NCBI GenBank assembly: GCA_951406725.2
Contig: OX597823.1
Coordinates: 112,344,001 to 112,408,000 of the forward strand
Origin: Octopus vulgaris
Taxonomy: Eukaryota
Reading direction: 5' to 3'
Length of the DNA: 64,000 nucleotides
The notes under the pieces were generated by a model. It had not been told where the DNA came from and searched no databases. It saw only the letters and a list, made by a program, of their open reading frames with translations. Of this stretch, positions 11,470 to 59,197 are shown in pieces (position 1 is the first letter of the stretch; the number at the start of each line of letters is the position of its first letter). A program made the position numbers and the translations under genes.

Positions 11470-12645
11470 TAGTTCTGATGTCATTCCCCAGCGATCGTTG
11501 CCAAGTCGATGTTCAGATGACATATCTTCACCTTGGTTTCTTCTGACTTGTGGCATCTGAATGTGTCCATGTGTCCAGGAGATTCCTTCTCTGATGCAGT
11601 CCACTGATATGCTTCCCCTACACAACCTGAAGTCAGGCCTCGATGAGTGCCTGTTCCATCCCACCTTTTGCTTGACCTTGAAAGATGACCCCTTCCAGAA
11701 ACTTGATGTCTTTAGGTAGTGTCTTCCTCTTGAAGACGACATACGGTAGCATCTTTCTTCCATCAGCCATGTAACCTAGCATCACTGTAAACCAGTCCTT
11801 CTCATGACCCATCGTGATGATTTCCCCTGTCTTCTCCCCATTCTCAGCAACACTTCTCACGATCGGAAGATTGAACATGAGGGGAATATGGACTGTGTTA
11901 CCAATGTGGATCAAAGTGCATTAAGGCCATTTACACAGGTTGATGATAAGGCAGAGAGCTGGCAGAAACGTTAGCATGTCGGGCAAAATGCTTAGCGGTA
12001 TTTCGTCTGCCGTTACGTTGTGAGTTCAAATTCCGCCAAGGTCGACTTTACCTTTCATCCTTTCGGGGTCGAAAAATTAAGTACCAGTTACGCACTGGGG
12101 TCGATGTAATCGACTTAATACCTATGTCTGTCCTTGTTTGTCCCCTCTGTGTTTAGCCCCTTGTGGGTAATAAAGAAATAGGTTGATGATAAACTGCTGG
12201 AACTTCTCAGTCTTTTTGTCAAGATCTGGCAGCTGCTGTGCAATGTGGGTGCCACGCCTGATAGACAGATCATGCCTGCACATAAACCAGAAAGCCCATG
12301 ATGTGCTGGAACAGAAGTCTCTGATGCCGATGTCTTTGGTGCTCTTATTAGCCTCGATTTGAAGGGTGAGTGTCAACACCTTTTGTCCCACCATCCTCTT
12401 CTCCTTCACCCATCTGAGAAGCCTCTCCCCCAATTCCAGCCACTGCGCTGTCTTGCCCTTAATCACCTTCTTCTTCTTGGGCATCAGCTTGATTGTGGCC
12501 TTATTGGAGCACCATCATTGGACAACAGATTCATCAAACCCAAAGTGATGGCTCACTGCATGGTTTCCAAACTCCTCAGCAAACCTGGAAACTGAGAGCT
12601 TGAAGGTGGCTGTGATTGCTCATCTCAGCATGATGACTTGGCCAT
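11470..12645 (-). pseudogene. Decayed pogo/Tigger-family (POGK-like) transposase
   Basis: Brinker-like N-terminus (ATFKLSVSRFAEEFGNHAVSHHFG), CENP-B-type HTH (WLELGERLLRWVKEKR...WAFWFMCRHDLSIRRGTHIAQQLP) and DDE_1 region (GHEKDWFTVMLGYMADGRKMLPYVVFKRKTLPK). It has stops and frameshifts, and is split by a SINE at 11950-12180 with 13-bp TSD AGGTTGATGATAA. Confidence 0.9.
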
Positions 12646-21512: not shown

Positions 21513-23234
21513 TTAGATGAGGAGGGGGGGAGAGTTGAGACCAAATGGCGTATAAGAGCGAAGAGAGAAGATTAATTCCTGTTCACGGCGCAAACGGGAA
21601 TCTGGATGGCCTCTGTGTAAGGACAAACCGAACACAGACAGGTGTTGCAAAGAGTGACCAGTGGAGTGGAAATGGCGTGAGACCGGTGTGTCGTTCGCAA
21701 GGCGGATGTCACAAAGGTGTTCCGCGAACCCGTCAGCCAAGCGGCGTCCCGTTTGTCCGATGTACAGGGAATGGCAGAGAGAGCAAGAGACGCAATAGAT
21801 AATATTGCTGGAGGTGCAGGTGAAGGAGTTGATGATGCGATAGGGTCGATGATGGGTGCCAGTGAGGAGGGTGGTGTTGGAGAGGTAAGGGCAAGTGCGG
21901 CAACGTGGGCGGGAGCAGGGGAACGAGCCAGGTTGGGAGGTAGGGTCAGGGAAGGAGCTATGGACCAAAAGGTCTCGAAGGTTATGGGCTCGTTTGAAAG
22001 AGGGGAGGGGTCGGTTAGGGAAGAGGTGTGAAGTGGACGAGTCGGACTGGAGATGACGGAAAGCTCGAAGAATGGTGCGTTGGAGAGGTAGGGTCGTGGG
22101 GTGGTAAGTGAGGGGAAAAGGGTGGCGGGAGACTACAGGGTGGGTTCGGGGAGAGAGAGCAGATACACGGTCCACGGAACGTGCTCTGGCAAGGGCGGTG
22201 TGGATAGTGGTGAGGGGGTATCCACGTAGGATGAAGTGGTGAGCCATACGTTGAGACTGAGTCTCAAAGTCATGGTCGTTATTACAGAGCCTACGTAGAC
22301 GGAGGAATTGGGAATAGGGGATGGAAAGCTTGGTGTGTTCTGGGTGGGAGGAAGAGAAGTTGAGGTATGAGTGTGAGTCTGTGTGTTTGTAGTGAATGGA
22401 GGTGGTAAGAGTGGAGTGAAGAATGCTAACCGAAATGTCGAGGAAGAAGACAGAGGTGTTGGAGATAGTGGAAGTGAAGTGGAGGGCTGGATGGAAAGAT
22501 TGAATGAAAGAGAGGAAGGAATCTAGATGTTCACGGGAGAGTGAGGTGGCACCGATAATGTCGTCAATGTAACGACCATATAGTTCAGGAGTGGGACCAG
22601 TGAAATTAGAGAATATTTGGGCCTCAACATAGCCAACGAACAGGTTCGCATAGTTGGGGCCCATTCGCGTTCCCATGGCCACTCCTGAAACCTGATGGTA
22701 GAACTCGCCCGTGAACGAGAAGCAATTAAGAGTAAGGTCAAGTTCGGCCAGACGAATGAGTGTGGAGGTGTCAGGTTCAGGGTTGGAGCGGAGGTCAAGA
22801 AAGTGTTGAAGTGCCTGCAGTCCTTCGTGGTGAGGGATAACGGTATAGAGGCTCTGAATGTCCATAGTAAAAAGGATTTTGGAGGAGCCGGGAGGAAAGG
22901 AGAAAGAGTTGAAAAGCCGGAGAGCATGGTTGGTATCGTGGATGTGGGAGGGAAGAGATGCCACTAGGGGGGCAAGGACACGGTCGAGGTATTTAGAGAT
23001 GAGCTCCGTGGGGCAGTTACAGGCGAAGACGATGGGGCGGCCAAGGTTGTTGGGTTTGTGGATTTTGGGGAGGAAGTAAATGGTGGGGGTACGTGGGGTT
23101 CGTACAATTAGGTTGGATGCGGTGTGGGGGAGACGGGAGGACGAGATGAGGTCGCGGACAGTAGAGGATACCGTCTGTTGGTAGCTACGTGTGGGGTTAG
23201 AGGACAGAGGGGAGTAGAAGGAGGTGTCATTGAG
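21513..23234 (-). CDS. PLE reverse transcriptase - GIY-YIG endonuclease polyprotein (573 aa, N-terminally truncated)
   Basis: Motifs LPKIHK, GRPIV, TMDIQSLYT, GVAMGTRMGPNYANLFV, RYIDD, FLD, SSSHP, linker PCSRPRCRTC, IIY..CSLC..YIGQTGR, REQELI and GLN. No internal stops. The first 26 aa of the listed 599-aa ORF come from the flanking SINE. Confidence 0.95.
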   Translation of the reverse strand, partial: LNDTSFYSPLSSNPTRSYQQTVSSTVRDLISSSRLPHTASNLIVRTPRTPTIYFLPKIHKPNNLGRPIVFACNCPTELISKYLDRVLAPLVASLPSHIHDTNHALRLFNSFSFPPGSSKILFTMDIQSLYTVIPHHEGLQALQHFLDLRSNPEPDTSTLIRLAELDLTLNCFSFTGEFYHQVSGVAMGTRMGPNYANLFVGYVEAQIFSNFTGPTPELYGRYIDDIIGATSLSREHLDSFLSFIQSFHPALHFTSTISNTSVFFLDISVSILHSTLTTSIHYKHTDSHSYLNFSSSHPEHTKLSIPYSQFLRLRRLCNNDHDFETQSQRMAHHFILRGYPLTTIHTALARARSVDRVSALSPRTHPVVSRHPFPLTYHPTTLPLQRTILRAFRHLQSDSSTSHLFPNRPLPSFKRAHNLRDLLVHSSFPDPTSQPGSFPCSRPRCRTCPYLSNTTLLTGTHHRPYRIINSFTCTSSNIIYCVSCSLCHSLYIGQTGRRLADGFAEHLCDIRLANDTPVSRHFHSTGHSLQHLSVFGLSLHRGHPDSRLRREQELIFSLRSYTPFGLNSPPLLI

Positions 23235-23544
23235 TGTATATATGTGTGTGTGTTTATGCTTGTGTGTCTGTGTTTGCTCCACCCCCCCACACACACACAC
23301 ATCACTTGACAACCAATGCTGTTTTGTTTACATCCCCGTAACTTAGCGGTTCGGCAAAAGAGACCGATAGAATAAGTCCTGGGGTCAATTTGCTTGACTA
23401 AAGGTGGTGCTCCAGCATAGCCACAGTCAAATGACTGAAACAAGTTGAAGAGTAAAAGAGTATTTTAATTTTAGCAACTATATTTTCTGGACAGGAGCCT
23501 CCAGGGCTGAATGCCAGGAAGCCATACCTGTTTTTAAATGATTC

Positions 23545-29423: not shown

Positions 29424-29461
29424 ATTCAATATTTCGGGGTTATGACCCCATTTTCAAGAAA
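29424..29461 (-). ncRNA. Minimal hammerhead motif with a U3-A8 core
   Basis: UUC-UUGAAAA-U-GGGG-UCAUAA-CCCC-GAA-AUAU-U-GAA, inverted immediately upstream of a PLE GIY-YIG fragment. Confidence 0.6.
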
Positions 29462-29499
29462 TTAATGCATGTTGCCAATGTGCATCTTTTCAAGGACTT

Positions 29500-29800
29500 G
29501 ACATACAGATAGTGCACACTGGCCCTTCCCTGAGAAAAGCTCTGTTCAAGAACAACACCTCTCACTACTCTGAGGAGTGCACATTATCGAACTGCCCCAT
29601 CAATGACCCTGAATTGTGCCAGAGGACCTATGTTGTATATGAGATCATCTGTGGCAGATGTGACGCATCCTACATGGGAAGCACAATGAGAAAACTGCAT
29701 ATATGCATTAAGGAACACATGCAGATGCAGGCAGACGCTTCCGTGAAGAAACATCTACAGAAATGCCAGATCCAGGAAATTACAGTGCACATCAAGGCAA
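29500..29800 (+). pseudogene. PLE GIY-YIG endonuclease fragment
   Basis: CTLSNCPINDPELCQRTYVVYEIICGRCDASYMGSTMRKLHICIKEH...SVKKHLQKC (VVY..CxxC..YMG..EH). Confidence 0.85.
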
Positions 29801-29849
29801 CACACACACAAACACACACACACACACACACATATACATATATATTTAA

Positions 29850-29998
29850 AGGTATTTTTATGTAAGCTTAAAGCTTATAGCGATCAGTGTGCACTGACTA
29901 AAGAAAATAGCCTAATAACAGGACTATTTTCCTTGGTCATTTGCCATAAGCTTTTTCCTTGGTGGTCACCATAAGCTTTAAGCTCATCTAAAAACACC
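29850..29998. mobile_element. Short foldback / MITE-like element
   Basis: About 36-bp imperfect terminal inverted repeats (ggtatttttatgtaagcttaaagcttat / ataagctttaagctcatctaaaaacacc) plus an internal hairpin. Confidence 0.65.
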
Positions 29999-45516: not shown

Positions 45517-45677
45517 TTTTCTATTTTCTCTCCCTGTTTATTTCTCTGTTCCTTTCTGTCGAAGAGCATAGGCTCGAAACATAAAAGACTTTCTCACTTC
45601 CTGTGTGTTAAACTAATACATCTGTTTGTTGTTTACACACCTGTCTTCGTCTTTTGTTTTTTTTTGTAAATTCTTAC

Positions 45678-49379: not shown

Positions 49380-51355
49380 CCAGAGCCATTCTTGTTGCTT
49401 TTTTTTATTATAATCACCCCACAGATTTTTATGGATAACACCATACAAAATTCTGGTGCATCTAAATTAAGTACCATATTCATTTGAATCTAAATTTTTG
49501 CTGAACTTATATATATATATATCAGTTGAATAAAGTTAAAACAGTCTGGTTTTTATGTTTTTTATTATAGCATTTTAACAAAATTAACTCTTTCATACTT
49601 AAAGTGTTGTCTTTTGGGATGGGCGTTTAAAAATTTTTTTGCCAGATGCTGGTGTGTTTATGTCCCCGTAACTTAGTGGTTCGGCAAAGAGACCGATAGA
49701 ATAAGTACTAGTCTTACAAAGATTAAGTCTTGGGGTCGATTTGCTCAACTAAAGGTGGTGCTCCAGCATGGCCGCAGTCAAATGACTGAAACAAGTAAAA
49801 GAGTAAAAAGAGAGTATACACATGCACTGTGTAGTCGTCCTTCCCTCGTTTATTACCGTTCCTATTCTAACTCACGTCCATTGTCTGGAAATCTTTCGTC
49901 ACACATCTGTGACCTCCTCAGTGTCACTTTCCATCTTCGTGTGTGTTCTTGCTTGGCTTATTCCATTCATATATATAGATGATGATAATGATGATGGATT
50001 CTCTTGTCATGATTAACAAATGTGAGTTCTGTAAAATAAAGCAGTAATCATGTTCTATGGACATGAATGTGTCTCTTGAAGCTTGCTGGTGCCTTGCAAA
50101 CCTTTTGGCAAATAGAACAAGTCGAGGACTCAATTTGCTTGTGAATCATTTACACTCATGCACATACATATACTCTTTTTAACTCTTTTACTTGTTTCAG
50201 TCATTTGACTGCGGCCATGCTGAAGCAAATCGACCCCGGGACTTATTCTTTGTAAGCCCAGTACTTATTCTATCGGTCTCTTTTTGCCGAACCGCTAAGT
50301 GATGGGGACGTAAACACACCAGCATCAGTTGTCAAGCAATGCTAGGGGGATAAACACAGACACACAAACATACATATATATATATACATATATACGACAG
50401 GCTTCTTTCAGTTTCCCTCTACCAAATCCACTCACAAGGCATTGGTCATCCCGGGGCTATAGCAGAAGACACTTGCCCAAGATGCCACACAGTGGGACTG
50501 AACCCGGAACCATGTGGTTGGTTAGCAAGCTACTTACCACACAGCCACTCCTGCGCCTTATTATTAATATGCTTATTATTTTTATTAATATTAAAGCAGT
50601 AAGCTGGGAGAATTGTTAGCATGGCAAAGTGTTCTGTGCCATTTCTTCAGACTTTTTACTTTGTATGTTCAGAGAAGTACAAGCTGAAGTATACCAAGAT
50701 TGAAGGAGGAGATGGAAACTTATTACACAAAGTACAACTGGGATTTCCTTTGATTCAGTCTACACATGGCTAAAGTTCTGTGGTTACTCTTTTACTCTTT
50801 TACTTGTTTCAGTCATTTCACTGCGGCCATGCTGGAGCACCGTCTTTAATCGAGCAACTCGACCCTGGGACTTATTCTTTCGTAAGTCCAGTACTTATTC
50901 TATCGGTTTCTTTTGCCGAACCGCTAAGTGACGGGGACATAAACACACCAGCATCGGTTGTCAAGCAATGCTTGGGGGACAAACACAGACACACAAACAT
51001 ACACACATACATATATATATATATATACATATATACGACGGGCTTCTTTCAGTTTCCGTCTACCAAATCCACTCACAAGGCTTTGGTTGGCCCGAGGCTA
51101 TAGTAGAAGACACTTGCCCAAGGTGCCATGCAGTGGGACTGAACCCGGAACCATGTGGTTGGTAAACAAGCTACTTACCACACAGCCACGCCTGCGTCTA
51201 TAAAAAGTGTGCGAGACAGCGCCAGTGGTTTTCAGGGTATGAAGAATTCAACGAGAGTTCAGATTAACAAAGTAACCACATGGCTAAGCCCACACAGTAT
51301 GCCTTTGTGGAAAAATTTGAAACCATTATTATCATCATCATCATTATTATTACTA

Positions 51356-52805: not shown

Positions 52806-53430
<625 letters not shown>

Positions 53431-53513
53431 TCGACATCAGTGGCAGACGCCATTAGAAAAACTTATATAGGTTTGCAAAGCAGCCTTCACTTTCATCACG
53501 ACCTGGTGGTTAC

Positions 53514-53556
53514 CGCCCTTTGACGAGGGACAACAATCCCGAAACTAGTTCGAGCG
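53514..53556 (+). ncRNA. Degenerate hammerhead motif (C3U) in element 53431-53722
   Basis: UUGACGA-GGGA-CAACAA-UCCC-GAA-ACUAGU-U. Stem I is only partly paired (cgccct / cgagcg). Confidence 0.6.
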
Positions 53557-53752
53557 TATAACTCAGGCTTGCGAGTAAGGGATGGCCTCCCTTTGCAAAT
53601 ACTCCAAGGACACTGATATTGTGTCTAAAGCCAGCTAGAGACGAAGATCTCTTGGGGCTATAACGCTACAGTAACACCCCCTCCCCAATGTGGTTAGCCA
53701 CGATAAGATGGCTTCTATACTTTATATATATATATATATATATATACGTATA

Positions 53753-53972
53753 AAGTTAAACCAAACATGAAAACACAAAGAGAAAACACAACAACGCGAA
53801 GACATGGAACGAGTATAGTGTTATTGGACGCTCAGGAAAGCAAAGAAAGAAGGAGGATTTAACATTTCAAGCAGAGCTCTTCGTCAGAAACATAGGGAAA
53901 AGAAAGATCCAAAGAAGGGAAGACGGAAGAAAAAAAATCGCCAATGGTACACATGCGGTACACCCGCGGTCA
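53753..53972 (-). mobile_element. Family A pLTR-like element with hammerhead (53857-53891)
   Basis: GUUU-CUGACGA-A-GAGC-UCU-GCUU-GAA-AUGU-U-AAAU, with TA flanks. Confidence 0.78.
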
Positions 53973-54021
53973 CATATATATACATACACATAGCCATACT
54001 TACATACATATATACATACAT

Positions 54022-54070
<49 letters not shown>

Positions 54071-54261
54071 CAATTGAGGATAAAATCTTTAAAAGAAATT
54101 ATCAGTAGTTTTATTCCGAATAGACAATTTGTAACCGAAATGCATTGCGAATAAGCCCGCCATTTTCATAGATATGTAAAGATAAACATTCGGACATGCT
54201 ACGACGAATTCTACGGTTGGCTATCGAGCTTGTAATGTTATGTTTTTCTCTTATATTTCTT

Positions 54262-54340
54262 GAGTTTGTTGCACTGATGAACATAAAAATGCATATTCTG
54301 CATTTAAATGCGAAATCACATGTGATATGTAACTGAATTC
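54262..54340 (+). ncRNA. Type I hammerhead motif in TA-flanked element 54067-54457
   Basis: GUUGCA-CUGAUGA-ACAU..AAAUGCA/UGCAUUU..AUGC-GAA-AUCACAUGUGAU-A-UGUAAC. 12-nt palindromic stem III. The closing pair of stem II is an A-C mismatch. Confidence 0.82.
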
Positions 54341-54682
54341 TTTTTTAAAATGATGTGTTTTGAAGTTTTGCATTCGGTAAAATTTTGTTTATTTAGTAGT
54401 TTTGACCGCATTGGTCCCTCTTAGCGTGTTGGTATCTACGAATAGTAGTACCCTCAATATAATATATATATATATATATAAGTAGACAAATGAATTATCT
54501 TATTACGGATAATTCGAAAGATAACCGATACCTGGGTAGCAAACTCACAACAGAAAGGGCACGGTTGAAGTTACGACCATAGGGCATAAAATCCGTGCCT
54601 TAGTGCGGAAATTTGAAGTATCATATATTAAGTATAGGAAAGAATGGAGCTGAACAAAGATTTAACAAAATTCCTTTATTTT

Positions 54683-54768
54683 ATTTTCGACATATGTTTC
54701 GAAGTCTGCAAAGCCTCTAATTCCGAATGAATAAGGAGTCCATTATGCAGCTTTCTCTTCAGGAAAAT
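54683..54768 (-). ncRNA. Canonical type I hammerhead ribozyme (left arm)
   Basis: AUUUUC-CUGAAGA-G...long stem II...C-GAA-ACAUAUGU-C-GAAAAU, GUC triplet. Confidence 0.88.
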
Positions 54769-54901
54769 CCAGGAACTTAATTCTTTTCGACAACTGCTCA
54801 CGAGGAGCCCATAAAAATAATGATCCATTATTTTTATGGGCTCCTCGTGAGCAGTCGTCGAAAAGCTTGTTGTGCATTTTGTTGGAGAATTAAGTTCCTG
54901 G

Positions 54902-54987
54902 ATTTTCCTGAAGAGAAAGCTGCATAATGGACTCCTTATTCACTCGGAATTAGGGGCTTTGCAGACTTCGAAACATACGTCGAAAAT
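54902..54987 (+). ncRNA. Canonical type I hammerhead ribozyme (right arm)
   Basis: AUUUUC-CUGAAGA-GAAAGCUGCA...UGCAGACUUC-GAA-ACAUACGU-C-GAAAAU, GUC triplet, cut after 54981. Confidence 0.88.
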
Positions 54988-55041
54988 AAAATAAAGGAAT
55001 TTTGTTAAATCTTCGTTCAGCTCCATTCTTTCCTATACTTA

Positions 55042-55092
<51 letters not shown>

Positions 55093-55840
55093 ATACATAC
55101 AGCCATATATCCATGCACTGAGACATATAAATTCTTAGATTATTGAAATTTTTCATGCTTGTGATGTATTGACAGCCTCATGTACACACACATGCATGTG
55201 CATGCATGCAATCACACACATGCACACACAGACGCAGCAGTCTGTTATAAAACTTAAAAACAATCCAAAATTATACAGCGCCTCTTTAACGGAAGAACAT
55301 GAATTCAAGAATTTATTCAATAACTAATGTATTTCCCATTTTGTTGTTGTTCTCATTATTGATTTTTTTTTTCTTTTCTCCATTTCATTTTAGGATTTTA
55401 AATAATTTTTTTCCTGTTATTCCTTTACTTCTTTTTCCATTCTTACTTTTATTAATCTGCCCTCATCCGTTGCACTGGTGGAAATAAAAGACGATGTTGT
55501 TGTTGTTGGTGTTATTACATTTTTTTTCCTCTCTTCTCATTCCTTTGATTCAGTTTGTTGAAGATTTTAAAGTTGTTATTGTTGCTGTTGCTGGTGTTGC
55601 TGATGATGTCTTCATTGTTGTTGTTGTTGTTGTTGCTATCCTTGTTGTTGCTGTTGAAGTGTTTTTATATTATTCTTTATAATTGCATTCAAGTTCTCAC
55701 CATTTCATTGTTGTTTATAATGAGTAAACAGTGAGATTTTTGAGCATCCATCCTTGTTACATGTATTACATTATTATGTTCAAGTACATGACAATATAAA
55801 TGGTTGATATCATTGCCCATTAAAAAGCTGGCAATATGTC

Positions 55841-56449
55841 GGTTGCAGTGGTGAGGGTTGCTGGTATGAGGGTTGTAGCGATGAGGGTTGCAGTGATGAG
55901 GATTGCAGTGATGAGGGTTGCAGCAATGAAGGTTACAATGAGGAGTGTTGCAGGGATGAGTGTTGCAGGGATGAGGGTTGCAGGGATGAGGGTTGTAGTG
56001 ATGAGGGTTGCAGCAATGAGGTTTGCAGGGATGAGTGTTGCAGTGATGAGTTCTGCAGCAATGAGGGTTGCAGTGATGAGTTCTGCAGCGATGACAGTTG
56101 CTGCGATGACGGTTGCAGCGATGAGGGTTGCAGCAATGAGGGTTACAATGAGGAGTGTTGCAGTGATGAGGGTTGCAGCGATGAGGGTTGCAGGGATGAG
56201 GGTTGCAGCAATGAGGGTTGCAGGGATGAGGGTTGCAGCAATGAGGTTTGCAGCAATGAGGGTTACAATGAGGAGTGTTGCAGTGATGAGTGTTGCAGCG
56301 ATGAGTGTTGCAGTGATGAGGGTTGTAGCAATGAGAGTTGCAGCGATGAGGGTTGTAGCGATGAGGGTTGCAGCGATGAAGGTTACAATGAGGAGTGTTG
56401 CAGTGATGAGGGTTGCAGTGATGAGGGTTGCACATATGAGAGTTGCAGT
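55841..56449. repeat. 15-bp minisatellite (GATGAGGGTTGCAGY), about 40 units
   Basis: Direct reading, with a recurring variant ggttacaatgaggagtgttg. Confidence 0.95.
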
Positions 56450-59197
56450 TGATTTGAATGAAAGGAAATTAAATTGGAAGTTATTGAGCACTCCGCAGGC
56501 AAGTATAGTTCTCAGGGAGATTCAGTGTGACTCAGAATGTGACAAGGATAGCCCCATTTGAAATACAGCTACTACTTATTTTTACCAGCTGAGTAAGCTG
56601 GAGCAACATGAAATAAAATGCGTTGCTTAAGGGCACATAACACCATTGGGAATTGAACTCACAACTTCATGGATGATGTCTCAAATACCCTAACCACTAA
56701 GCCATGCACCTTCACATCATCACCCATAGTTACACACTTACACATAGATCACATGATCATGTGACCAACCAGGCTATCAGATATTGTTACACATCACTGG
56801 CCACAATGTGCTTTTGCATTATTTTAGCCTTCAAGCGACACCACTCTGCTGGTTAAGTGAGCAAGCCAACATTCTCCTGTGATTGAAAGGGGGACTTGAA
56901 CTATGTGAAATGAAGTGTTTTGCTCAAGAACACAATGTGCCGCCCAGTCAGGGAATCGAACCCACAATTTGGTGATCATGAGTGCAACAGACTAACCACT
57001 AGGCCACATGCCTTCACATGTATATATACACATTTATGCACATCTATGTACACACAAACACACAAGTGCCTGCTCACAATTTTTGAATGTGTGTGCATAT
57101 ATCACAGTATCACAGTATCAACCAGACCACCAGATGCTATAGTACACTGCTGGTCACAATGCACTTCCAATTCTGTCTTGAATTTTCTATTCTCTTCTAT
57201 CTTGGCCCAAATTACCCGACTAAATCATCTTCCCATCATTGTAAAAGCTTTCCAAGTGCCCCTTTGCACTCACTTGGATATTTCTCGGCACCTTGCATGG
57301 GTCTACTTGTTGCCTGTAAACCTTGCGACATGTCTAGCTTAATACAACTTGTGCTTTCAGTGTTCTGTGAGAACATAGTTCACACCAATCCATTTTTGAA
57401 TTATCTCATTTCAAATATGATTCCATAATAACAATCTAAGCACATGCGCGAGTGTGGGGTGGGGAGTGAGGTGAAAGAGAAAGTAAGAAAGAAGAAAGGA
57501 AGAAAAGAGTAGAGAAAAAAAGGGAAGATAAAATAAGAAGTAAGTAGAAAAATTGATAGAAATAAATAAAAGAAAAGAAAAAGAAGCAAGAGATGGAAAA
57601 GAGAAAAGAGGAGAAGTATAGAGAGAAAGGGAATAAATAAAATAAATAAAAAAGTACAGGATGGAAAGTGAAGAATGTAATACGACACTAGTGTCGAACA
57701 GTGAGAATTAACTGGAAAGATAGAATCATGATTGCAACCAAAATGAAATAGTCTGGACTAATAATGAAGGATGCATTTTCTCTCATTTATGCAAGCAGTG
57801 AATATCTCAGGTTTTGGATTTTGGTTTTGTCTGTGTATAAGTGAAATGTTTTGTACATTCTCAATAATCTCCATCTAATATCATAATCTACTTTATTTCT
57901 GTTTCAAAAGACATACTTGGTCTGTGTCAAGATGTTCCATATTGTATCTCCTGAATGAGGCAGTGTAATGAGCAGTCATTTCTCCACTATCTTAAATGTA
58001 GCCCATCAAATAGTGTGCATTATTTAGATCTTTCTTTCATCCTTTTGTTCCTTCGTTATCCCTGTTTAACGTTCTCAAGCTTTTACTCATATATCCCAAG
58101 TTACAATAATTATCAAAACAGGAGTCATAAAACATCAGGTCTGAACACTGAATTATTACACTTCTGCTAAAAATAAATTTTTCGCAACTCTGAAAAGAAT
58201 TTTGCTTTCAGACATGCACAGCAGGACTACCTGTAATTTCCTCCACACCTCCACATTTATAAGGTGTCCCGGATCTCTTCAAACACAATGAATAGCCACA
58301 AGTCATTACTTGTGAGAAATTGACAATATTTAATATTAACTTTGTATGATCATTACACACACACAGACAAACACACATACTTATGTATGCATGTATATGC
58401 ATACATACAAACAGACATACATAAATAGCCACATCTATATATAGGAGTGGCTGTGTGGTAAGTAGCTTGCTTACCAACCACATGGTCCTGGGTTCAGTCC
58501 CACTGCATGGCACCTTGGGCAAGTGTCTTCTACTATAGCCTCAGGCCGACCAAAGGCCTTGTGAGTGGATTTGGTAGACAGAAACTGAAAGAAGCCCGTC
58601 GTATATATGTATATATATATGTATGTGTCTATGTTTGTGTGTCTGTGTTTGTCCCCCTAGCATTACTTGACAACCGATACTGGTGTGTTTACGTCCCTGT
58701 CACTTAGCAGTTTCGGCAAAAGAGACCGATAGAATAAGTACTGGGCTTACAAAGAATAAATCCCGGGGTCGATTTGCTCGACTAAAGGCAGTGCTCTAGC
58801 ATGGCTGCAGTCAAAGGACTGAAACAAGTAAAAGAGTAAAGAGAGAGTATATGAGATAGAAATATACATATATAAAAATGTATATGTATTGTATATATAT
58901 TGTATAAATATGTACGTGCATTATGCATATGTGTATGAGTGTATATATATATATCAATGTTTCTGTATGTGTATAGACAAATATTTCAATTTTTCTGTTA
59001 GGAAACTTAAATGTTCAAGAATGTATTTATTTTCCAATCTTTTACTCCGGTTCCATTTCATTGATTTAGACATTTTTTTCCCTAAATTTTCAGTATTTTT
59101 GCTCCTGTTATTATTGACATATTTTCTTGTTTGTGTAATATAATAATAATAATAATAATATACATGTGTATATATCTATATATATATATATGTATAT

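Follow-up and report, generated by a model that had tools for sequence, protein, structure and literature searches.

The locus presented here raises the question whether two hammerhead ribozymes standing back to back in a long palindrome form a new RNA device, or whether they are the by-product of a transposon insertion. Positions are given in the 64,000-nucleotide stretch of Octopus vulgaris DNA that was analysed, hereafter the window. Alignment of the two arms placed them at 54623-54822 and 54826-55047, around the 3-nt loop ATC (54823-54825); with the ATG and CAT on its two sides this loop makes up the fold-back centre (54820-54828). The arms differed at 5 positions per about 200 aligned bp, by transitions only, and 22 nt (54864-54885) were unique to the right arm, at a distance of 38 nt from the centre. 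The full palindrome was predicted to fold into a rod of -328 kcal/mol (z -40), and none of 100 shuffled sequences was as stable. A scan of the 64-kb window for non-simple hairpins whose perfect arms measure at least 20 bp matched this centre alone, and no second copy of the palindrome was found within the window. The original prediction of a 425-bp palindrome with a 3-nt loop and one GUC-cleaving hammerhead per strand was confirmed by the arm alignment, by folding and by motif scans.

The position predicted for the palindrome, 54623-55047, was right, but it was too narrow as the boundary of the element. The insertion starts at 54482 and reaches to 55047 (566 bp), exceeding the palindrome by 141 nt on the left, and this tail is contiguous with the arm in contigs of public sequencing runs. 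A minus-strand copy of 341 nt, which includes the 141-nt tail, and a plus-strand copy of 222 nt without tail stand head to head inside a TA run. The target microsatellite reads (TA)9 on the left side (54463-54480); on the right side (TA)n extends over 55041-55082 and overlaps the terminal ATATAT of the arm. The tail (54482-54622, minus strand) is a 3' extension of the left copy beyond the palindrome. Close to its end an 8-bp terminal hairpin was predicted (54492-54515, minus strand), which is a candidate signal for RT initiation or recognition. The left arm (minus strand) is part of a copy truncated at its 5' end that has lost 22 nt between 54784 and 54785, where AG microhomology bounds the deletion, as judged from the arm alignment and the family cover described below. 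The right arm (plus strand) belongs to a 5'-truncated copy with a short 3' end.

The family to which this sequence belongs was followed in public sequencing data. Contigs of four runs (X1, X3, X6 and X10, with three organism labels) were aligned to a 556-bp stretch at an identity of at least 85%, and 1151, 150, 870 and 261 contigs fitted in the four runs. Thus the sequence of the palindrome is a high-copy repeat family. A shared-word search found part of the stretch in 20 of the 24 runs listed (9 studies, 4 organism labels) with a best fraction of 0.41; none of these 24 contained half of its words. None of the runs containing it was listed as RNA; X3 may be RNA. Exact sequence patterns gave no match in metagenome contigs.

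Both ends of the insertion could be compared with those of other copies. Among the 32 of 2448 pieces listed, the border between tail and arm (54622/54623) was bridged by at least three (X6 records 25, 27 and 30) with at least 31 letters per side, and was crossed with fewer letters by three further pieces. The summed contig depth in the tail matched that of the arms. Loose ends at 54488-54489 entered (TA)n in 13 contigs of X1 and 6 of X6, so that family copies also reach TA runs there, and at 55032, about 15 nt short of the end of the right arm, 22 X6 contigs departed from the reference and went on in AT-rich letters. Because of these two sets of loose ends we conclude that the family has two 3' ends, a long and a short one. 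The stem of the tail hairpin was kept in all three loose-end consensuses listed at 54522, with identical stem letters and a differing loop.

The depth reached its minimum at the centre of the palindrome, with values of 3-4 in X3 and X10, whereas the arms had hundreds to thousands. Relatives ran upstream past the centre into non-palindromic sequence, as seen from loose ends at 54836 in X1, X3 and X10, and in X6 record 31 the match began at 54826 and was followed by 48 further letters. The X1 loose-end consensus of these non-palindromic relatives carried the same micro-hairpin of 3 bp and 3 nt and the X10 consensus one of 2 bp, so that the micro-hairpin may have predated the inversion. These observations bear on whether the palindrome itself could be the mobile unit, as a non-autonomous MITE or foldback DNA transposon with TA targets or as a palindromic mini-element dependent on a Penelope-like element (PLE). 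Such a unit would explain the long inverted arms between TA flanks and the multicopy arm sequence, but not the low depth at the centre, nor the relatives that proceed upstream of it into other sequence. As the left copy also extends 141 nt past the palindrome, other junctions listed have different centres and a second copy is lacking in the window, we consider a mobile palindrome highly improbable.

No contig bridging the centre of this very locus was among the 32 of 2448 pieces listed, which is evidence neither way; a sceptic might take it as a sign of an assembly artefact, through a read made chimeric by fold-back or the wrong joining of a repeat, and PMC8557442 notes that insertions of this kind trouble assemblies. 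Against an artefact, the arms differ by five transitions, a pattern with a chance of 0.004 under uniform errors, and by a deletion with microhomology at its borders. Each arm is derived at one diagnostic site and agrees with the family majority at another, and the tail is absent from the right arm. An artefact is in our opinion very unlikely.

The differences between the arms were polarised with the family cover. The palindromic form of loop III is the family majority (76-98% of depth in all four runs), which makes the right arm derived at 54978, and G at 54954 is the majority as well (88-100% in the three runs with cover), which makes the left arm derived there. The mismatches at 54856 and 55014 are polymorphic in the family, and at 54943 the family majority is unlike either arm. 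With one derived state in the right arm, one in the left and three that are mixed or uninformative, the mismatch pattern is unlike that of one-way editing. Since derived states occur on both arms, we set aside ADAR editing of a retrotransposed intermediate. The asymmetry of the arms had been predicted to be part of the fold-back. It measures 22 nt, and since the family covers 54864-54885 deeply, it is rather a later deletion by which the left arm lost these letters.

Both arms share departures from the family majority at 54925, 54931, 54946, 54956 and 54957 and a 5-nt insertion, which points to arms that derive from one template or that underwent homogenisation by arm-to-arm conversion. Stem II of the hammerhead is affected as well, with 5 of its 14 pairs being non-Watson-Crick in the window copy. 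Family variants at all five of these pairs restore pairing (three as majority, two as minority), so the family conserves the ribozyme fold, and stem-loop II of this particular copy has decayed in both arms. Within the core, the only variant among those listed was a minor C-to-A change at the cleavage base.

Shared decay of stem II would also be expected of an aged copy that was duplicated at the DNA level, by a fold-back during double-strand-break repair or a replication template switch that copied part of an older PLE insertion, and DNA repair could make equal use of the micro-hairpin at the centre and of the TA microhomology found at the right end. The shared changes are, however, also explained by a diverged source element or by gene conversion between the arms. 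Moreover, the right end coincides with the ends of other family copies, and inverted junctions recur at other breakpoints (all nine joints listed, see below), so that a duplication of this kind is improbable. With the clock of 0.09 per 25 Myr taken from PMC13282606, the five differences give the arms an age of about 3.5 Myr (range 1-8), which is a minimum if arm conversion occurred. The recent origin that had been concluded from the few mismatches holds only in the sense of roughly 1-8 Myr on this borrowed clock.

Motif scans placed the two hammerheads, both of type I with a GUC triplet, at 54683-54768 (minus strand) and 54902-54987 (plus strand), each lying on its own strand within the 3' arm. 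The former has a self-complementary 8-nt stem/loop III and a predicted cut between 54689 and 54688; the latter is predicted to be cut after 54981 and has lost the palindrome of loop III through the derived C at 54978. The cores of both consist of CUGAAGA, the pair G10.1-C11.1, GAAA and GUC. An equally good motif was found in none of 5000 shuffles of the arms, and a relaxed motif in 4 of 5000. The original prediction called these hammerheads canonical, which applies to the core but not to the periphery: stem-loop II measures 55 nt, stem III has 2-3 bp, and Rfam does not match them, with no hammerhead at gathering score in the window nor at E≤10 in 53000-55500. Matches to Rfam miRNA families in 53000-55500 were sub-threshold and were ascribed to the hairpin.

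A sister subfamily, seen at 54973-54987 from loose ends at 54993 in X3 and X10, kept GAAA, the short stem III and stem I; its loop III differs and its triplet is GUA.

Whether the ribozymes could be active depends on the transcript. Forcing the hammerhead fold costs 123 kcal/mol (plus strand) or 131 kcal/mol (minus strand) in the full insertion, and these computed costs support the predicted rod that sequesters both ribozymes in full transcripts. In a single arm, whose predicted fold is not more stable than that of shuffled sequences (z -1.9 and -0.1), the cost is 3-6 kcal/mol, and for plus-strand transcripts starting from 54765 onward it is 5-8 kcal/mol, with 24 kcal/mol at 54755. Transcripts starting centrally had been predicted to cleave. 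Their fold is indeed accessible in the calculations, at 3-8 kcal/mol for starts from about 54765 onward, but the cleavage of a free arm would probably be poor or slow, because type I motifs with a short or unstable helix III act as dimers and a single minimal motif showed no cleavage (PMC4209133). The computed self-duplex of stem III amounts to -7.0 kcal/mol for the left arm and -2.1 kcal/mol for the right arm, so by this model an intermolecular stem III is feasible with the left arm and hardly so with the right.

A hammerhead on each strand of a rod-like fold brings to mind a viroid-like circular RNA, integrated or incipient, whose two polarities both carry ribozymes, or else a tandem retrozyme giving rise to circular RNA. 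In such an RNA the near-perfect self-complementarity would, according to the folding, hide both ribozymes, and one hammerhead per strand cannot free a unit-length circle. Head-to-tail joints were absent among the nine joints listed, and the exact 22-nt pattern had no match in viral contigs. We regard this origin as extremely unlikely. Head-to-tail tandem units were found neither in the window nor among the nine joints listed, where the contigs are short and arrays of longer units could escape. The non-LTR retrozymes described in bioRxiv 10.64898/2026.07.22.740005 consist of such tandem units; they resemble the octopus sequence in their type I hammerhead and in being PLE-related, and differ from it in that the octopus locus is arranged head to head and has an apparent ORF end.

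This probable ORF end lies at 54825-54893 (plus strand), where an open frame may represent the last 22 codons and the stop of the parent ORF. Two upstream loose ends of relatives translate as IDRQFVPFI and IQRNYVPFI, in frame with PLFLWAPREQSSKSLLCILLEN-stop of the window; of the changes between them, two are synonymous and three replace the residue (the agreement within the X1 consensus was 0.72). A variant at 54870, present in 40-66% of depth, is also synonymous. Because two of the loose-end differences and the 54870 variant are synonymous, the data weakly suggest that an ORF ends here, 9 nt ahead of the inner helix I of the hammerhead. The ORF stub had no Pfam match, and a search for linkage to RT or GIY-YIG domains, a weak one with a 40-residue window query and two candidates, gave no match at E≤10.

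Inverted junctions were not restricted to this locus. All nine joints listed ran from a minus copy into a plus copy at breakpoints differing from those found here, and their depths of 17-104 were within the ordinary range of single contigs. In element coordinates, four of them were symmetric within 14 nt, four had an inverted partner consisting of tail only, and in one the partner started 3 nt inside the short end. The shorter side of a joint comprised 22-30 letters at the 85% cut-off in AT-rich DNA, which is error-prone, and the junction letters are known for three of the nine.

In four of the nine joints listed the forward arm began 0-16 nt past the predicted cut, at 54982, 54990, 54991 and 54998. 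One joint, from 54688 to 54982 with two letters between (a single X6 contig of depth 29), was exactly symmetric at the cleavage site, its arms starting from the very base with which the 3' cleavage product begins. This clustering has a naive P of about 0.005, with the interval around the cut picked post hoc. It would fit a hammerhead that cuts the template RNA in vivo, so that the RT runs off at the cut end and folds back and the palindromes record the cleavage site; we hold this as a doubtful, though conceivable, reading. Several points speak against it. The stretch after the cut is AT-rich, best conserved between the subfamilies and easiest to align, and a common 5-nt deletion blurs the positions near the cut; a detection bias could account for the junctions found there. 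The palindromic loop III could by itself seed a fold-back beside the cut. Furthermore, the centre of the present locus lies 156 nt upstream of the cut, and the exact case is one contig. A steep increase of depth after the cleavage site was also considered as evidence for cleavage and was rejected, since divergence between the subfamilies sets in immediately upstream (loose ends at 54993). A literature search for template 5' ends defined by cleavage in vivo turned up only PMC11167929, which found no read ends at the cut site. If true, a record of cleavage in the palindromes would provide evidence from the genome that PLE hammerheads have a role.

The arrangement found here was compared with known systems. 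Like the insertions of EN+ PLEs (Pen2a of Adineta vaga and others; PMC3846280, PMC8557442), it combines a head-to-head inverted 5'-truncated copy and a palindrome at the junction with a one-sided tail, a (TA)n target and a hammerhead near the 3' end. In PMC3846280 the pLTR is inverted and may bear a tail at one end, and head-to-head palindromes are ascribed to self-priming; PMC8557442 gives the same insertion scheme with (TA)n targets and calls the function of the hammerhead in EN+ PLEs unclear. Unlike insertions of the Pen2a type, both octopus copies are stumps (341 and 222 nt) without ORF body. The tail of 141 nt contrasts with 30-40 nt in the PLE literature, and no target-site duplication is readable within the microsatellite.

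In their type I topology, their core, the pair G10.1-C11.1 and a short palindromic helix III the octopus hammerheads are like the PLE motifs of PMC4209133. Their placement as two nearby motifs on opposite strands also resembles the pairs which that paper reports from Schistosoma mansoni, 100-700 bp apart. They are unlike those motifs, with helices of 4-8 bp, in having a stem-loop II of 55 nt, and helix I comprises 6 bp and a predicted distal extension. With Poseidon PAc of Anolis carolinensis (PMC11167929) the octopus family shares AT-rich targets and a tail that is defined by two alternative 3' ends. In that study the tail was tied to two RT start sites, and mutants indicated that the hammerhead was dispensable in vitro. 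The hammerhead of PAc overlaps the ORF start and its tail is short, whereas the octopus hammerhead comes after the apparent stop codon.

As to the identity of the family, the octopus elements Naiad_Obim, Naiad_Ovul, Naiad_Omin and Hydra-1_Obim (PMC8557442 supplement) have the same preference for (TA)n. Naiad was considered following the entry 'HHR_half_core' for Naiad_Ovul and was rejected, as the 3' ends of the three Naiad elements in the supplement mismatch in a comparison by eye. Hydra-1_Obim has the same CUGAAGAG core; its identity with our family was likewise rejected, because the hammerhead listed in the supplement does not otherwise match this sequence. Four strings of 11-14 nt gave no match in the supplement, where line breaks might conceal one. 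According to PMC13282606, O. vulgaris has 190 Penelope-like families, and the present family may already be catalogued in its repeat library.

Another PLE was found in the window itself. A 5'-truncated copy at 21513-23327 (minus strand) contains a 604-aa frame with an RT (Pfam RVT_1) and a GIY-YIG-like end, which is followed by a minimal hammerhead-like motif (20896-20872, minus strand) and by a (TA)n junction at about 20735. It is unrelated in sequence to the palindrome, but has the same order of ORF, hammerhead and (TA)n, and we counted this in favour of a PLE origin. A GIY-YIG-like fragment at 29446-29865 (plus strand) matched the frame of this PLE with E 1e-5 and is a transposon remnant, as is a Tc5-type DNA-binding domain at 12122-12514 (minus strand). 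Five further minimal hammerhead-like motifs, picked by eye among 28 matches of a loose scan, are probably 3' fragments of PLEs: 275-245, 44269-44239 and 53887-53857 on the minus strand and 45556-45580 and 53520-53545 on the plus strand. Those at 53887-53857 and 53520-53545 lie tail to tail on either side of one (TA)n run at about 53725.

The window is rich in microsatellites. It also contains a 15-bp minisatellite (55722-56450) with open frames on both strands, one of them of 214 aa and rich in Cys and acidic residues, for which the only Pfam match was sub-threshold. Vault RNAs are known mainly from deuterostomes. The Rfam vault RNA model (RF00006) matched at 51205-51295 (minus strand) with 42.9 bits versus a gathering score of 34 (E 3.5e-6), followed by a run of five T, and in a cephalopod this match may be of interest. 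None of the papers listed in a literature search around it mentions 'vault RNA'.

Returning to the question raised above, we consider it very probable that the locus is one dead insertion of two head-to-head stumps from a hammerhead-bearing retrotransposon family, which is high-copy and probably Penelope-like. Four structural features of EN+ Penelope-like elements are present, namely a type I hammerhead near the 3' end, an inverted 5'-truncated copy, a one-sided tail and a (TA)n target. The origin by fold-back as inverted pLTR, as originally predicted, is upheld by a high-copy family that ends in (TA)n, by the one-sided tail, by the nine of nine joints listed that are head to head, and by a layout as in PMC3846280 and PMC8557442. 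Most likely this type of insertion is already described, and the back-to-back ribozymes are its by-product and not a new RNA device.

We infer the enzyme, the fold-back step and the order of events as follows. The endonuclease of the element would nick a (TA)n run, and the RT would begin at the far 3' end, which includes the tail, and copy about 360 nt of the RNA. It would halt near the end of the ORF, where the 3-bp micro-hairpin would let the cDNA fold back and be copied outward; alternatively, two cDNAs from one source may have annealed at the centre. The second arm would end at an internal TA-like stretch and connect with the opposite side of the TA run. The outcome would be a head-to-head palindrome with a one-sided tail and one outward-pointing hammerhead per strand, in which five substitutions and one 22-nt deletion were presumably acquired afterwards. 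On either strand a read-through transcript would meet the antisense arm first and form the rod, and for this reason the ribozymes would be silent in it unless transcription started near the centre; even then stem III would need a partner RNA. No host function is required.

The locus itself is of little weight, as it represents a textbook by-product of PLE insertion. The family may be of wider use. Its tail is about four times as long as published ones and ends in a conserved hairpin. Its hammerhead with a 55-nt stem-loop II was missed by Rfam, which means that length-limited searches may undercount PLE ribozymes. Finally, the many inverted junctions of this family provide a dataset for the question whether the position of 5' ends in PLE copies is determined by ribozyme cleavage.
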